A stretch of DNA of 54,640 bases, taken from NCBI GenBank assembly GCA_036795065.1, contig DAIRFN010000002.1:1-54640 (forward strand), given 5' to 3'. The DNA is from Vicinamibacterales bacterium. GTDB taxonomy: Bacteria; Acidobacteriota; Vicinamibacteria; Vicinamibacterales; UBA2999. Under the pieces are notes generated by a model. The model did no database searches, had not been told where the DNA came from, and worked only from the letters and a program-made list of their open reading frames with translations. Positions 10,004 to 54,071 of this stretch are shown piece after piece (positions within the stretch are counted from its first letter, which is position 1; each line of letters starts with the position of its first letter). Made by a program: the position numbers and the translations under genes.

Positions 10004-10146
10004 ACGAAAACGACACCACGAAGATACGAAGACCACGAAGGCAGCACGAAGGGATCATCTCGACTGCGCGTGTCGACCGAAGAGGACCGGCGCAGATCTA
10101 TCATGATGAACTTCGTGATTCCCTTCGTGGCTTCGTGGTTTCTTGT
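10004..10146. repeat. Roughly 140-nt imperfect inverted repeat built from ACGAAG / CTTCGT hexamers
   Basis: Left arm: ACGAAG at 10018, 10026, 10035 and 10046. Right arm: CTTCGT at 10111, 10123 and 10131. Central stem: CTGCGC (10064-10069) pairs with GCGCAG (10090-10095). The element fills the parB-selD intergenic space. Confidence 0.6.
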
Positions 10147-23000: not shown

Positions 23001-23743
23001 GCGAGGACCTCGAGGACGACGTGCGGGCCGTGGTGAACCTGAAAGTGGACTTCAGGCTCCCCGAAGCCTACGTGCCGGACATGAACCAGCGCCTCACCAT
23101 CTACCGGCGCGTGGCCGGGGCGAGATCCGAGGAGGAGATCGCCGCAATCGTGGACGAGGTGCACGACCGCTACGGGGCTCCCCCGACGGCCCTGCTGAAC
23201 CTGGCCGATTACGCCCGCATCCGGGTGCTGGCCGACGGGCTGGGGCTTGAAACCCTCGACCGGGAAGGCTCGGCCGTCGTCTTGAAGTTCAGGGAGAGGA
23301 AGACGACGGTCGACCCGGTCCGCATCATCAACCTGGTCCGCGAGCGTGAGGACCTGCGGATCTTCCCGCCGGCGACGCTGAAACTGGACTTGTCCGTGGC
23401 CGGCCGGGAGTCGCCCCGCGACCATGCTCGGGGCGACCGTGAGCCAGTCGAACGGTCGGGAGTCGGGAGTCGGGAGTCGGGCAGAGCTTCGCAGCCGGGA
23501 GCCGGGGGTCGGAACGCAGGGCCGCTGGCCGACGCCTGGGCCAAGGCTGGAACGGGTCGTGCCGCCCGTCGGCCGGTGCGGAAGCCGGCCTGGTGGGCCG
23601 AGCGCGCCACGGCTGGGGCGGTCACGCCGGGCTTCTCGAAGGCCGAGATCCTCAAGGCGGCTCCGGAGGATCCGAGGGCGCCCGATGGGGTGCTGGACCG
23701 GGTGACCGGCCTGTTACTGGCCCTGTCGGACGCGGTAAACTAA
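20096..23743 (+). CDS. mfd: Transcription-repair coupling factor Mfd, with a low-complexity C-terminal extension of about 110 aa
   Basis: 1215 aa with a UvrB-homology N-terminus, the RNAP-interaction region (DLKVGDLIVHVDHGIGQF), and the superfamily-2 translocase (GDVGYGKTEVAMRAAF, DEEQRFGV, TRG motif). The D7 domain ends near LKLDLSVAG, after which a Gly/Arg/Ala-rich tail follows. Confidence 0.95.
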   Translation: MSTTTTTPSLALQSLLLDATSKSGLSRPTGRFTGLGGSARALAVAAMTHRVRPAPVLFVLSTDAALDDAVDDVRFMLRALEGLADTAVERLVLPFPSLQVDPYRGLAPHFRATSARAQALHALASGQVRVLVASAPALLPRLAPPDTIRSLSATLRTGHDSSPDALVAMLAEGGYERQDPVDEHGEFCLRGGILDVFPAGETMPVRIEFVGDTVESLRRFDPSTQRSTDTIDQFAVVPVRDFALSASSSVSEPAASIVDYLGSAHVVIAEPEDVRAQVEQAWSGVRASYEERVPGDRAASTLAPGQLMLGWDEVEPLVARGTALEELSLEQDERSVHVSYQPPQEFKGRIPDWVGDIRQALERQETVLFVAGSRGRAERTVELLRDYDVRASWAGHADEQRAAGAVIVVDGQLSRGFRLPEAGLLVHAAGDVFEEERRRAQQRAAKRSAAATFLSDLRDLKVGDLIVHVDHGIGQFVGLKQITVGDDVKEFLELRYHGEDKLFVPVERLDLIQKYSGGTRPPLDRLGGTTWERAKTRVKKAMRDMAEELLKLYAARRAVAGHAFSADTHWQEEFEGAFPYELTPDQAAAVTDIKRDMESSTPMDRLLCGDVGYGKTEVAMRAAFKAVMDGKQVAVLAPTTVLAFQHLKTLTERFAAFPARIDMVSRFRTKQEIAETLEALAAGRLDIIVGTHRLLSKDVQFRDLGLLVVDEEQRFGVTHKERIKQMRKKVDVLTMTATPIPRTLNMSLVGIRDMSIIETPPRDRLAIQTNVLKFDQDVITRAIRAEMARGGQVFFVHNRVESIFSMGNLIQRLVPEARVVIGHGQMNEEVLERAMLDFMAHKFDVLLATTIVENGLDIPNANTIVINRADRYGLSQLYQLRGRVGRSDRAAYAYLLIPPEQSLSPVARKRLAAIKEFSDLGSGFRVAALDLEIRGAGNLLGGQQSGHIDAVGFEMYMKLLEDTIRELKGEDLEDDVRAVVNLKVDFRLPEAYVPDMNQRLTIYRRVAGARSEEEIAAIVDEVHDRYGAPPTALLNLADYARIRVLADGLGLETLDREGSAVVLKFRERKTTVDPVRIINLVREREDLRIFPPATLKLDLSVAGRESPRDHARGDREPVERSGVGSRESGRASQPGAGGRNAGPLADAWAKAGTGRAARRPVRKPAWWAERATAGAVTPGFSKAEILKAAPEDPRAPDGVLDRVTGLLLALSDAVN
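23455..23482 (+). repeat. Tandem heptamer GTCGGGA x3 plus GTCGGGC inside the mfd 3' extension
   Basis: Read directly: GTCGGGA at 23455, 23462 and 23469, and GTCGGGC at 23476. The 7-nt unit is not a multiple of 3. Confidence 0.9.
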
Positions 23744-23747
23744 AGAA

Positions 23748-24818
23748 TTGCGGGGATTTACCCAAATGACAAGACGAACGGTGACGGTTTCGGCGGCGTT
23801 GATCGTCGCATTCCTGGCGGCGCCCCGGGCCGACATCCTCGAGCAGGTCCTGGTGAAGGTGAACGGCGACATCATCACCAAGACCGACCTCGAGCAGCGG
23901 CAGATCGCGACGCTCCGGCAGAAGGACCCCACCCTGCGCCCGGACGACGATGCCGCGCTCCAGAAGGCGCTGGCCGAGATCACGCCCGCGGTCATCGTGG
24001 ACGCGGTGGACGAACTGCTCATCCTCCAGCGTGGCCGCGAGCTGGGCTACGCGATGTCCAATGAGCAGTTCGACAGCATTGTCGACAACATCAAGAAAGA
24101 GAACAAGCTCGAAGACGAGGACCAGTTCCAGGCCGCGCTCAAGCAGGAAGGCATGACGATCGCCGACCTGCGGAAGCAGCTCGAGCGCACGATGATCGTG
24201 CAGCGCGTGCAGCAGACCGAGGTGATGAGCAAGCTGCAGGTCACCGACGCCGAGCTGAAGATGTACTACGACAGCCACAGGGAAACCTTCACGACGAAGC
24301 CGCAGATGACGCTGCGGGAGATCCTCGTTTCCGTACCGACCAGCGAGCGCGGCGTGAACGTGGGACTGGAGGAAGAGGCAAAGGCGAAGGCCGAGGACAT
24401 CCGCAAGCGGCTGGTGGCCGGAGAGCCGTTCGCGCGGCTGGCGGCCGACCTCTCCGACTCGCCCTCGAAGGCCAACGGCGGCCTGGTGGGGCCGATCACG
24501 ATGGACGTGCTCGCGCCCGAGTTCCAGCAGGCGCTCAAGGATCTGAAGGTGGGCGACCTGACCCCGGTCATGCGGACCGGCCGCGGCTTCCAGGTCGTCA
24601 AGCTCGAGACGATGGAGACGGCGACGGTGAAGCCGTTCGACGAATCGAAGGACGAGATTGCCGACCGCATCGCGAACGAGAAGCGGCGCGGCGAGTTCAC
24701 GAAGTTCCTCGAGAAGCTCCGCGGCCAGGCCATCATCGACTGGAAGAACGACGAGATCAAGAAGGCCTGGGAGGTCGGCCTGAAGCAGGCGGCCGAGGCC
24801 GTGCCGAGCGCGCGATGA
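23748..24818 (+). CDS. SurA/PrsA-like periplasmic chaperone with a parvulin PPIase domain
   Basis: Signal peptide (alternative start ATG 23766, MTRRTVTVSAALIVAFLAAPRA), a SurA N-domain-like region, and a parvulin segment (GGLVGPITMDVLAPEFQQAL..GDLTPVMRTGRGFQVVKL). Confidence 0.8.
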   Translation: MRGFTQMTRRTVTVSAALIVAFLAAPRADILEQVLVKVNGDIITKTDLEQRQIATLRQKDPTLRPDDDAALQKALAEITPAVIVDAVDELLILQRGRELGYAMSNEQFDSIVDNIKKENKLEDEDQFQAALKQEGMTIADLRKQLERTMIVQRVQQTEVMSKLQVTDAELKMYYDSHRETFTTKPQMTLREILVSVPTSERGVNVGLEEEAKAKAEDIRKRLVAGEPFARLAADLSDSPSKANGGLVGPITMDVLAPEFQQALKDLKVGDLTPVMRTGRGFQVVKLETMETATVKPFDESKDEIADRIANEKRRGEFTKFLEKLRGQAIIDWKNDEIKKAWEVGLKQAAEAVPSAR

Positions 24819-25327
24819 GCCCCGAGCCCGAGCCGCAGGAGCCCCAGTGGTACGCCATCTGGACGCGCTCCCGTCATGAAAAGGTGGTCCGCGATCAGCT
24901 CGAGCGCAAGGCGATCGAGGTGTTCCTGCCGACCATCGGCAAGTGGAGCCGCTGGAAGGACCGAAAGAAGAAGGTGGACTGGCCCCTCTTTCCGGGCTAC
25001 TGCTTCGCGCGCTTCGACGTGATGAATCGCCTGCCCGTGCTTACCTGTGACGGCGTCGTGCAGATTATCGGCACCGACGGTGTGCCGTCTCCCATTCCCG
25101 CCATCGAGGTGGAAGGCATCCGGCAGCTGGTCGAGAGCGAGCTCTCATACGACCCCTGCCCCCTCATAAAAGAGGGCGAAATGGTGAAAGTGGTTTCCGG
25201 CCCGTTGAAGGGCGTGGTGGGCCGCCTGCAGCGCAAGGGCGCTCACGCGCGGCTGGTGTTGTCGGTGGATCTCATCGGCCAGGCGGTGAGCGTCGAGGTC
25301 GACGCCGCGGACGTCCGCCCGTACTGA
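24815..25327 (+). CDS. NusG-paralogue transcription antiterminator (RfaH/UpxY-like: NGN + KOW)
   Basis: 170 aa. NGN-like WYAIWTRSRHEKVVRDQLERKAIEVFLP and KOW GEMVKVVSGPLKGVVGRLQRK. The start overlaps the preceding stop (ATGA). Confidence 0.8.
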   Translation: MSPEPEPQEPQWYAIWTRSRHEKVVRDQLERKAIEVFLPTIGKWSRWKDRKKKVDWPLFPGYCFARFDVMNRLPVLTCDGVVQIIGTDGVPSPIPAIEVEGIRQLVESELSYDPCPLIKEGEMVKVVSGPLKGVVGRLQRKGAHARLVLSVDLIGQAVSVEVDAADVRPY

Positions 25328-25328
25328 A

Positions 25329-25490
25329 TCACCCAATCAGAAATCCCCCAATCCCCCAATCCCCCAATCCCCCAATCACCTAATCCCCCAATCACCTAAT
25401 CCCCCAATCATCAATCACTCAATCACTCGTCCCAATCGCGCGATCATCAATCGTCAATAAATCGTCAATCTGCAATCACCAATCGTCAAT
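25329..25490 (+). repeat. G-depleted degenerate tandem array: (CCCCCAAT)4, (CACCTAATCCCCCAAT)2, then about 10 units of 7-13 nt (mostly 7-8 nt), most ending in CAAT
   Basis: Read directly. The units run from 25345 to 25490, and the last CAAT overlaps the dusB ATG. There are only two G residues between 25328 and 25430 in an otherwise GC-rich sequence. Confidence 0.95.
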
Positions 25491-26556
25491 GAAGATCGGC
25501 CCCGTCCCCCTCCCCTCCCCGTTCGTCGTCTCGCCCATGGCGGGGATGACGGACACGGCCTTCCGCCGCCTGGTGAAACGCCAGGGCGGCTGCGGGCTGG
25601 TGGTGTCCGAGATGGTGAGCAGCGAGGGGCTGGTGCGCGGCATCGATCGCACGCTCGAGTACGCCGAGTACACGGAGGAAGAACGTCCCGTGTCCATCCA
25701 GATCTTCGGCGGCGACCCCGAGCGCATGGCCGAGGCGGCACGCGTGGTCGAAGGCATGGGCGCCGACATCGTGGACGTGAACATGGGCTGCCCTGTCCCG
25801 AAGATCGCGAAGCACAACGCCGGCTGCAGCCTCATGCGCGAGCCCGAGCACGCAGCCAGCATCATCGGCGCGATGACGAAGGCGGTGCGCATCCCCGTCA
25901 CCGTGAAGATGCGGAAGGGCTGGGACGAGAGCGACTTGAGCGCGCCCGACGTGGCCCGCCGCGTCGAGGACGCCGGCGCTGCCGCCATCGCCATCCACGG
26001 CCGCACCGCGAAGCAGTCGTATACCGGCCACGCTGACTGGGACTTCGTGGCCGAGGTCGCGAAGGCGGTGCGCATCCCGGTGTTCGGCTCGGGCGACTGC
26101 GTCGAGCCCGAGCAGGTGGTCGAGCGCCTGCGGGCCGGCGTGAGCGGCGTCTTCGTCGGACGCGGCGTGCTGCGCAACCCGTGGATCCTGGCCCAGGCGC
26201 GCGACCTGATGGAAGGGCGCGCGCCGCGAACGGTTTCGAGGGAGGAACGCGCCCGCTTCCTGCTCGACTACATGCAGTTGCTGCTCGACGAGCGCGTGCA
26301 CGAACCGGAGGGGTTCCGGCACGTCGCCCCGAGCCAGGGCCCGGCGTCGTCGACGCCGGCGCGCGGTCGGGAGCGCTGGGTCATCAACAAGCTGCGAGCG
26401 CTCTGCACCTGGTACACCAAGGGAATGGAAGGCGGGTCGCAGCTGAGGACCTCGGTGAACGCGGCCGAGTCGCTGGGTCAGTTACGAGAGCAGATCGAGA
26501 TGTTCTTCCTGGCCGGCGCCCTGTCCAGCCATTCACCCGACCTGGTGCCGCGGTGA
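25489..26556 (+). CDS. dusB: tRNA-dihydrouridine synthase
   Basis: 355 aa TIM-barrel Dus family: SPMAGMTDTAFRRL, VDVNMGCPVPKI (catalytic Cys), IHGRTAKQSYTGHADWD. Confidence 0.88.
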   Translation: MKIGPVPLPSPFVVSPMAGMTDTAFRRLVKRQGGCGLVVSEMVSSEGLVRGIDRTLEYAEYTEEERPVSIQIFGGDPERMAEAARVVEGMGADIVDVNMGCPVPKIAKHNAGCSLMREPEHAASIIGAMTKAVRIPVTVKMRKGWDESDLSAPDVARRVEDAGAAAIAIHGRTAKQSYTGHADWDFVAEVAKAVRIPVFGSGDCVEPEQVVERLRAGVSGVFVGRGVLRNPWILAQARDLMEGRAPRTVSREERARFLLDYMQLLLDERVHEPEGFRHVAPSQGPASSTPARGRERWVINKLRALCTWYTKGMEGGSQLRTSVNAAESLGQLREQIEMFFLAGALSSHSPDLVPR

Positions 26557-27254
26557 GCCTGCGCGTGGCCTTCGACATGGACGGCACCGTGGCCGACATG
26601 TACGCGGTGTTGCGTAGGGAGACGGAGCAGCTCTTCGGCCCAGTGGCCACGAGCCCTGCGGCCGCAGGCGACGCGGACACATCGGGCGAGGGCTCGCCCC
26701 TGCCGGGCCCGGCGGTGGACGAGCTTCAACTGACGGCCGCACAGCAGCGGCAGCTGTGGGACCGGGTCAAGGGCATCGAGAACTTCTGGACGTCGCTCCC
26801 GGAGGCCGAGCCGGGCATCATCGCGCGCATCGCGGAGACGGCCCGGAAGCGCCGCTGGGAGGTGCTGTTCATCACCACGCGACCGCCGAGTGCCGGCGAC
26901 ACCACCCAGGCGCAGACCCAGCGATGGCTCGACGCCAACGGGTTCCACCTGCCCTCTGTCTTCGTGGTACCGCGATCGCGAGGCAAGCTGGCCGACGCCT
27001 TGCAGCTGGACGCCGTCGTGGACGACCGGCCCGAGAACTGCCTCGACGTCGCGATGGACAGCAAGGCAACACCCGTGCTGATCTGGCCCCCCACCGCTGG
27101 CGATGCGCCATCGGCGGCGCGCCACCTCGGCGTGCGGACTGTAGGCTCCATCTCGGAAGCGCTCGCGCTGCTCGAGCGCCTGGACGACGAGCAGCGGCAG
27201 CCGGCCGTGGTACGGCGGATCCGCCGCCTGCTCAAGCGCCAGTCGCGGGACTAG
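26553..27254 (+). CDS. HAD-superfamily hydrolase (5'-nucleotidase-like)
   Basis: GTG 26553 overlaps the dusB stop (GTGA). Has the DxDGT motif in VAFDMDGTVADMY. The upstream part of ORF 26181-27254 lies inside dusB and was discarded. Confidence 0.65.
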   Translation: MSLRVAFDMDGTVADMYAVLRRETEQLFGPVATSPAAAGDADTSGEGSPLPGPAVDELQLTAAQQRQLWDRVKGIENFWTSLPEAEPGIIARIAETARKRRWEVLFITTRPPSAGDTTQAQTQRWLDANGFHLPSVFVVPRSRGKLADALQLDAVVDDRPENCLDVAMDSKATPVLIWPPTAGDAPSAARHLGVRTVGSISEALALLERLDDEQRQPAVVRRIRRLLKRQSRD

Positions 27255-39883: not shown

Positions 39884-39983
39884 CAGACACGGAGGGTCAC
39901 AGACACGGACGGGCCGCAGATGGCGCAGACACGGACGGGCCGCAGATGACGCAGATCGGACGGGCCGCAGATGCGCAGATAGG
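39884..39983. repeat. Tandem repeat of about 26 nt (CAGACACGGACGGGCCGCAGATGGCG), 3 full and 2 partial units
   Basis: Units at 39884-39899 (diverged), 39900-39925, 39926-39951, 39952-39975 (24 nt) and 39976-39983 (partial). The array lies 51 nt upstream of the atpB start and just after the lipoprotein gene stop. Confidence 0.9.
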
Positions 39984-54012: not shown

Positions 54013-54071
54013 GCAGGGTGCAGAGTGCGGGGTGCAGGGTGCGAGTGCGGGTGCAGGGTGCGGAGTGCCGG
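54013..54071. repeat. G-rich degenerate tandem repeat (about 19-nt unit GTGCAGGGTGCGAGTGCGG, x3; GTGC every 6-8 nt)
   Basis: Read directly at 54013-54031, 54032-54050 and 54051-54071. It lies 15 nt upstream of the aminotransferase GTG (53998, minus strand), so it is C-rich in that transcript. Confidence 0.85.

Follow-up and report, generated by a model that had tools for sequence, protein, structure and literature searches.

The STRR1 repeats of heterocystous cyanobacteria, with the unit CCCCA(A/G)T, were reportedly described by Mazel et al. in 1990 and are said to equal the unit of the Nostoc arrays. Arrays of GGGAATC in Xanthomonas and of GGGGA(C/T)T in Nostoc occur 89–186 times per genome and are dispersed, mostly intergenic and often arranged as inverted pairs (Rehm et al. 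2015, PMC4692102). They lie within ~50 nt of the ends of open reading frames (ORFs), with the G-rich strand non-coding upstream of the ORF and coding downstream of it; their length varies among related genomes, they show no link to insertion-sequence (IS) elements, and no function has been established for them (PMC4692102). Oligonucleotides of GGGGATT and GGGAATC form G-quadruplexes (G4) and i-motifs in vitro (PMC4692102). Other arrays reach the start codon itself: TAACTGA repeats lie directly upstream of start codons in Beggiatoaceae (MacGregor 2015, PMC4679880), and the heptamers GAC(C/T)AAT and TTTTGAA overlap start codons in Nostoc PCC 7120 (bioRxiv 10.1101/2022.06.06.494920). Our literature search on Acidobacteria repeats and on unit strings returned nothing beyond PMC4692102. 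Here we analyse a repeat tract that separates a gene for a NusG paralogue from dusB in a 54,640-nt stretch of DNA from a Vicinamibacterales bacterium of the phylum Acidobacteriota (assembly GCA_036795065.1, contig DAIRFN010000002.1; hereafter the window). We conclude that the tract is probably a solo, non-coding, unit-periodic arm of a genome-wide family, which we call CAATC arms, and not a regulator built for dusB.

The tract (25327–25490) takes up the whole spacer, about 161–162 nt long, that separates the TGA of the NusG-family ORF (24815–25327) from the dusB ATG (25489). It comprises the following parts:

25327–25428, plus strand: inner variable part of the arm, tandem 7–8-nt AATC units containing one G.
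25345–25408, minus strand: six G5 runs, (GGGGGATT)4 plus two more, forming a canonical G4 motif as read from sequence only.
25429–25491, plus strand: conserved outer module (...CAATCGTCAATAAATCGTCAATCTGCAATCACCAATCGTCAATG), the last 3 bases of which are the dusB start codon.

Positions 25329–25490 contain 52 A, 68 C, 9 G and 33 T. A single G (25340) falls within the first 100 nt of the tract and the next lies at 25429; the preliminary description, which had counted two G residues in about 100 nt, was right about the scarcity and one too high in the count. Segments of 100 nt with at most two G or at most two C occur at three places in the 5.17-Mb, 69%-GC genome, and all three are CAATC arrays. 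Six C5 runs start at 25345, 25353, 25361, 25369, 25385 and 25401, and the tract holds six copies of CCCCCAAT, two of CACCTAATCCCCCAAT, 20 of AAT and 18 of AATC. Tandem Repeats Finder reports it as period 8/16 arrays with scores of 102–116, exceeded in the window only by a 26-nt array at 39900–39979 (score 132). Coordinates, composition, C5 runs and Tandem Repeats Finder thus agree with the earlier account of a G-depleted repeat tract occupying the full spacer up to dusB. The inner part reads, in order, AATCACCC, AATCAGA, four AATCCCCC, two AATCACCT+AATCCCCC, and then AATCATC and AATCACTC units, and the type and number of its units vary in the related genomes G006, G018, G017 and G009 and in L219 and L218. 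The outer module is matched by the nhmmer model of the family at 25431–25494 (E 3.3e-13) and contains a genome-specific 19-mer, CAATCTGCAATCACCAATC, at 25466–25484.

Tracts of this kind are found throughout the source assembly (G000: 5.17 Mb, 69% GC, 419 contigs, 87% complete). The genome-wide search proposed in the preliminary description returned many of them: clusters of at least five AATC number 162, versus 0 for most composition-matched control 4-mers, and the control 4-mers that do cluster (CAAT, 151; ATCA, 52; TCAA, 23) are all overlapping frames of the CAATC unit. We estimate that 94 intergenic loci carry about 155–210 homologous arms. With a profile built on the outer module, nhmmer gives 210 matches, 162 of which extend to the outer end, and the 11-mer AATCTGCAATC occurs exactly 109 times in the genome. 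Every arm combines an inner variable run of AATCNNN(N) with an outer module of ~60 nt, which is conserved and terminates in CAATG(GAC). The inner units differ from arm to arm, being AATCACCC, AATCGCTC, AATCGCCC or AATCCCCC, with AATCNCC as another form; unit length is 7–8 nt and the period is not strictly 7. The consensus of the outer end is ...CCCCAATCAATCGCTCAATCTGCAATCGCCAATCGCTCAATGGAC, and the dusB copy ends in ...AATAAATCGTCAATCTGCAATCACCAATCGTCAATG. Rfam contains no family for the tract or for five pair-bearing loci. The description of the tract as the dusB leader therefore holds as far as it fills the spacer and fails as far as it implies a dusB-specific element, the tract being one copy among ~200.

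The arms follow a strict polarity. At the 94 loci we counted 52 inverted pairs of the type '-+' and none of the type '+-', 23 + 14 solo arms, and five other combinations ('--+', n = 3; '--', n = 1; '-++', n = 1). The G-rich arm always comes first in a pair, and the conserved end therefore always points toward the flanking gene; likewise, the C-rich strand always reads toward the adjoining gene. Among 116 non-redundant outer ends, 79 face the 3′ end of a gene and 35 face a 5′ end, mostly at a distance of 0–30 nt, and at 3′ ends the stop codon mostly lies 0–20 nt from the arm. The 46 pairs with classified flanks sit between convergent genes in 27 cases, tandem genes in 16 and divergent genes in 3. 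The dusB copy is a solo arm between tandem genes with its C-rich strand sense, an arrangement shared by 6 arms, versus 12 in the opposite sense.

These properties identify the CAATC arms as a known kind of bacterial repeat and not a switch made for dusB. As in the Xanthomonas and Nostoc arrays, the units are tandem and join a G/C run to an ATC/ATT core (AATCCCC in Nostoc, AATCCCCC in the CAATC arms), the copy number is similar (155–210 arms, 52 pairs), the copies are intergenic and form inverted pairs, the same rule of position and orientation applies at ORF ends, the number of units at one locus differs between related genomes, and no link to IS elements is seen. Unlike those arrays, CAATC arms occur in Acidobacteriota, are built of 7–8-nt units in which the CAATC core stays constant while the other positions vary, and have an outer module of ~60 nt that is conserved and follows a consensus peculiar to the species. 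They also differ in G4 potential: a canonical G4 motif is present in only 14 of 155 arms (9%), the dusB copy included, and neither four units nor four G tracts are favoured. The G-quadruplex potential claimed earlier thus stands for the minus strand of the dusB copy, opposite which the sense strand is i-motif-capable on the same grounds, and does not extend to the family.

CAATC arms also resemble REP, BIME and REPIN elements in that they occur in hundreds of intergenic copies, form inverted pairs capable of folding into hairpins, and are enriched after genes and between convergent genes. A further likeness is that REP-type elements, according to Gilson et al. 1987, reportedly show a species-specific consensus at shared loci. 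Unlike REP, BIME and REPIN elements with their RAYT genes, a solo CAATC arm is not palindromic and is unstructured, consists of tandem 7–8-nt units, and has no RAYT gene.

Several neighbouring genes take a start or stop codon from the arm. Fourteen ORFs stop at the TCA (= TGA) in a terminal CTCAATG, and at 14 of the 35 ends that face a gene start, the ATG of the terminal CAATG is the first possible start codon. For the genes of ThiI, isocitrate/isopropylmalate dehydrogenase (Iso_dh), Maf, a DAO oxidoreductase and a YCII protein, all of which start at an arm, the Pfam domain begins at residues 2–6; the arm-derived starts are therefore real, and a Shine-Dalgarno sequence would not fit in front of them. 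The arrangement of dusB, with an arm as leader and no Shine-Dalgarno sequence, recurs at five or more other housekeeping genes. Like the start-codon arrays of Beggiatoaceae and Nostoc, the CAATC array extends to the start codon in place of a ribosome-binding site, and it is found in this position at many unrelated housekeeping genes. Unlike them, it has a different unit sequence and forms arms of 90–195 nt with a conserved end module, and only 35 of the 116 ends face a gene start, most following stop codons.

The two genes that flank the tract are as follows:

24815–25327, plus strand: gene for a NusG paralogue of the UpxY family (Pfam NusG, 2.7e-20; NCBIfam NF033644 UpxY, 113 bits against a cut-off of 100).
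25489–26556, plus strand: dusB, encoding tRNA dihydrouridine synthase B (Pfam Dus, 4.5e-78; TIGR00737, 318 bits, above the cut-off).

The TGA of the NusG paralogue overlaps the first AATC of the tract (TGAATC), and the dusB ATG is part of its terminal CAATG. That the last unit supplies the dusB start codon, as first described, is borne out by orthologues that begin with MKIG and by an alignment to TIGR00737 DusB from residue 3; orthologues 64–91% identical to DusB share the same first residue, and the identity of 69–70% to metagenome-assembled genomes named Vicinamibacterales is at the 'same order' level among kin genomes. The lack of a Shine-Dalgarno sequence in the leader is equally upheld, the tract taking up the whole spacer. 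Because the tract is poor in G, no in-frame ATG, GTG or TTG precedes the dusB start, and its ATG is the first start codon past an in-frame stop. Furthermore, the sense RNA has a minimum free energy of −9.1 kcal/mol over 196 nt (z −0.5), with the first 113 nt unpaired. The most economical reading is that dusB translation would start independently of a Shine-Dalgarno sequence from this structure-free leader. A scan of 23600–26700 for promoter or terminator consensus found none, which is consistent with an operon of mfd, surA-like, upxY-like and dusB genes.

Comparison of orthologous intergenic regions, as suggested in the preliminary description, shows both occupied and empty sites. A UpxY-like gene adjoins dusB across the order. 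In G001, G013, G015, G003, G022 and G024 the gap from stop to start is 3–10 nt (for example TACTGATGAAG and CACTGACATGAAG), and two metagenome contigs read TGAATCATG at the short junction. In four relatives a homologous arm occupies the same site, measuring 114 nt in G006, 98 nt in G018, 90 nt in G017 and 122 nt in G009, versus 161 nt in G000. The outer parts of these four arms are near-identical and the inner runs different, namely (AATCACCC)5, (AATCACCC)3, (AATCCCCC)3 and (AATCACCC)3(AATGACCC)4 in the same order. A second orthologous site has 1–2 AATCACCC units in G018 versus 7 in G006. In addition, a metagenome contig 99.77% identical to the locus over 2180 nt differs within the tract by a C5 run shortened to C4 and by a T→C change, although these two of its five differences fall in its last 70 nt and the contig ends inside the array, so that an error is possible. 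The length differences across five genomes and the near-identical contig support the variability in repeat number that had been proposed. The short junction in the other genomes suggests that the ancestral arrangement provided translational coupling, which the arm would abolish.

Codon position 3 of the flanking genes provides a yardstick for the divergence of the arm. The outer 62 nt of G000 are 79–84% identical to those of the relatives, versus 63–70% at codon position 3, and among the four relatives the values are 95–100% versus 78–91%. The outer module is therefore constrained or homogenised and does not drift freely. By the same measure, G000 is the outgroup to the four relatives (63–70% versus 78–91%); the arm is therefore older than their common ancestor and has been inherited vertically at this site. 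Unrelated arrays also occur at the dusB junction: the spacer of G016 (L018) holds a CTGCTWC-type run, and that of G021 (L028) an inverted CACGAAA...TTTCGTG pair, neither related to CAATC. The site therefore repeatedly attracts or tolerates such arrays.

Orthologous arm sites shared by G000 with G006 or G018 are found at dusB and at C46, C252, C269, C101, C418 and C24. Eight of nine orthologous arms read ...CAATCTGCAATC(G/A)CC... in G000 versus ...CAATC(AC/GT/GC/AG)CAATC(G/A)GC... in the relatives. This TG signature, which gives G000 a CTGC where G006 and G018 show other dinucleotides, is present in none of 20 sampled arms of G006 and G018, nor in the sampled arm of G001. The 19-mer CAATCTGCAATCNCCAATC has 52 copies in G000 and none in 19 congeners. 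Point mutations arising separately at the individual loci cannot yield such a species signature, which points to concerted evolution of the arms within the genome, probably by gene conversion, the ordinary candidate. A further orthologous site is C279:6670–6840 in G000, which corresponds to L205 of G018 and L214 of G006. A complete CAATC pair of 300 nt stands there in G018 and G006, whereas the 136 nt of G000 are largely unrelated and contain only short GATTG/CAATC fragments, representing either loss or a pre-expansion state.

The distribution of the family is patchy. Matches to the CAATC pattern number 492 in G000, 326 in G006, 255 in G018, 173 in G009, 171 in G036 (which belongs to another family of the order) and 104 in G001. 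The count is zero in seven congeners and in most of the order's remaining families, and controls with the reversed pattern give ~0. In a scan of one genome per species, runs of CAATC-type heptamers, often with an inverted GATTG partner, appear in many phyla, including Bacteroidota, Chloroflexota, Planctomycetota, Cyanobacteria and Desulfobacterota. In the cross-phylum search with the 19-mer, ~17 chance hits are expected in 596 Gb, and a hit was counted only where arrays were visible around it.

Other unit-periodic families coexist with the CAATC arms in the same genome. A census by 5-mer core gives ~70–94 clusters for CACGA/CGAAG, 65 for GAACC, ~57 for CCGAC/CGGGA and ~45–52 for CCAAG/AAGAC. 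Further unit-periodic arrays lie in the window at 10004–10146, 23455–23481 and 54013–54068. The first of these, upstream of selD, is an inverted CACGAAG...CTTCGTG pair of a non-CAATC family. The C-terminal tail of mfd (window 23404–23743) contains a (GTCGGGA)3.9 heptamer run with the CGGGA/CCGAC core.

Taken as a member of this family, the dusB tract can be given a plausible history. Two genes 3–10 nt apart, probably translationally coupled, would represent the ancestral state. An arm settled at the junction of the UpxY-like gene with dusB before G000 split from the four sampled relatives, and has been passed on vertically since. The inner AATCNNN(N) run would grow and shrink, most likely by replication slippage, and the outer module would be kept similar to the other copies of the same genome by concerted evolution, probably gene conversion. 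The effects on dusB would be passive: the arm would uncouple it from the upstream gene and leave it an unstructured, C-rich leader lacking both a Shine-Dalgarno sequence and upstream start codons, from which the first AUG would be used. The very C-rich, G-poor RNA could also load Rho, which prefers RNA of this kind.

Several points weigh against this reading. 'Dispersed repeat' names a pattern and not a process, since no target-site duplication, transposase or RAYT gene was found. The constraint on the outer module indicates that the arm is not plain junk, and it may have a sequence-specific function or be recognised by a binding factor. The census relies for its genes on a crude GC-frame ORF caller, and 20 of the 210 nhmmer hits lie less than 300 nt from a contig end, versus 4.9% of bases, as the assembly tends to break there; at twice the expectation near contig ends, the true number of arms is probably higher. 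Finally, what we say of dusB translation, Rho loading and operon structure is what we infer from the features described above.

Of the alternatives, the one that survives best concerns the origin of the arms, and it would refine the CAATC-arm reading and is compatible with it. It holds that the arm represents a cassette without its gene, the full form enclosing a small PF05635 gene (23S_rRNA_IVP/Avd-like four-helix bundle), whose protein, or a partner of it, binds, copies or homogenises the arrays. Three PF05635 genes of G000 and one at an Anaerolineae locus are enclosed by mirror arrays of short units with the same polarity, the G-rich arm coming first:

C132 3759–4251, reverse complement: PF05635 gene (95 bits) with mirror arrays of GGTCTTG/CCCAAGA.
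C64 1239–1701, reverse complement: truncated PF05635 gene with mirror arrays of AGGAATC/GATTCCT.
C355:5798–6070: PF05635 gene with mirror arrays of GTGTAGC/GCTACAC.
L100 6635–7025, reverse complement: PF05635 gene of the Anaerolineae locus with mirror arrays of TAGTCGN/CGACTAN.

The link between PF05635 genes and mirror arrays is real in G000 and unproven for the CAATC family. The species-specific consensus at orthologous sites needs a homogenising agent, which such a protein could provide. Against this, no PF05635 gene was found flanked by CAATC units, CAATC pairs in G000 enclose at most 187 nt with no genes between them, and we know of no activity of PF05635 proteins on such arrays. We therefore regard the cassette origin as tentative and on balance unlikely. 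A broader form of the idea, which we consider doubtful, is that the CAATC arms and the other arm families are substrates of a dedicated, non-transposase copying and homogenising system, possibly involving PF05635 proteins, across many phyla. It would insert arms at the borders of genes and hold ~200 copies to a master sequence particular to the species; if it exists, it would account for the long-noted excess of heptamer repeats in bacteria.

A second alternative assigns the tract a role in transcription, as a Rho-loading, rut-like attenuator, and the family a role as a barrier that keeps read-through or antisense transcription from running into genes at their 3′ ends. The C/G ratio of 68:9 in an unstructured RNA is suited to this, and the C-rich strand points into the gene, so that at the 79 arms facing 3′ ends the C-rich RNA is antisense. 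The enrichment of pairs between convergent genes (27 of 46) and their rarity between divergent ones (3) point the same way. The argument is, however, purely inferential, including the specificity of Rho in this phylum; in pairs, moreover, the C-rich arm would base-pair with the G-rich arm, and a rut site inside the dusB operon would be deleterious unless the RNA were translated or protected. We judge this role to be rather improbable.

We also weighed whether the arm reached the spacer by transposition, as a non-autonomous mobile element of the miniature inverted-repeat transposable element (MITE) or REPIN type. The conserved outward-facing termini, the 52 inverted pairs of one polarity, the patchy high-copy presence in congeners and the empty sites in relatives are what such an element would produce, and one pair, at C46, folds into a hairpin of ~110 bp (−205.8 kcal/mol, z −23). 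On the other side, direct repeats resembling target-site duplications occur at 49 pairs no more often than in permuted data, and target-site duplication was rejected. The arms are stably orthologous between species. As for terminal inverted repeats, the picture is mixed: the pairs have inverted arms, but 37 loci including dusB are solo. Partner arms are 78.7% identical versus 77.1% for non-partners, and an arm's closest match is its partner in just 5 of 52 pairs; with an effect this weak, we do not claim selection for pair complementarity. Nor is there an association with RAYT: Y1/RAYT (PF01797) has no match in G000 (87% complete), G001, G009 or G029, no CAATC arms surround the RAYT-like genes of G006, G017 and G036, and PF01797 is present in many array-free genomes, its presence not tracking the arrays. 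We thus rejected an association with RAYT as well.

The C46 site (G000 C46:2575–2827; L006:1494–1746) shows another way in which a pair can arise. G018 keeps two intact membrane-protein genes between solo arms, of which remnants of ~0.75 kb are left in G009 and G017, ~100 nt in G006 and 45 nt in G000, where the two arms have ended up as the near-perfect 110-bp hairpin pair. Stepwise gene loss at C46 therefore shows that a pair can form from two solo arms, and this 'pair' owes its existence to the decay of the genes between them. Given these observations, we consider transposition of a MITE- or REPIN-type element into the dusB spacer quite unlikely.

A gene-specific, phase-variable leader, in which slippage of (CCCCCAAT)n or formation of G4 or i-motif structures tunes dusB transcription or translation, appears very doubtful. 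The template strand does carry a canonical G4 motif, the number of units differs between species and between near-identical strains, and related units make G4 and i-motif structures in vitro (PMC4692102). But ~200 copies lie by unrelated housekeeping genes, two thirds of them toward gene 3′ ends, few arms are G4-capable, and relatives with a 3–10-nt gap retain the gene pair. As the array is non-coding, a change in its length shifts no reading frame. The idea that slippage varies promoter spacing from cell to cell has no basis, as the scan of 23600–26700 found no promoter-like site with spacing to vary.

UpxY- and RfaH-type factors read signals on the non-template strand of leaders. The neighbouring paralogue is a UpxY-family protein (NF033644), and an anti-Rho factor would be expected to protect just such a C-rich, G-poor RNA. 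The earlier proposal that this protein recognises the tract as its recruitment or target site is nevertheless most improbable and is not supported. The two genes lie side by side across the order, often with 3–10 nt between them, and are paired also in congeners with zero CAATC arrays (G004, G007, G015 and G019). The tract has no ops-like motif and, lying downstream of the paralogue gene, does not form the leader of a long target operon. The family, moreover, is genome-wide and mostly follows stop codons.

The CAATC-arm reading places the dusB tract among the heptamer-type dispersed arrays (STRR, GGGNATC, TAACTGA), which were first noticed decades ago and still lack both a function and an account of how they spread. 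The features that look new are the lineage in which the arms occur, the conservation of the end module, a consensus that is specific to the species even at orthologous sites, and the use that neighbouring genes make of the terminal ATG or TGA. As regards dusB, the finding deflates expectations, for the tract is no purpose-built regulator. For the family, the same-site arm in five species and the clear empty sites in others form a clean comparative series, and essential genes draw their start or stop codon from the repeat. This series makes it testable how the copies stay alike and how genes lacking a Shine-Dalgarno sequence are translated behind an unstructured leader of 100–160 nt.

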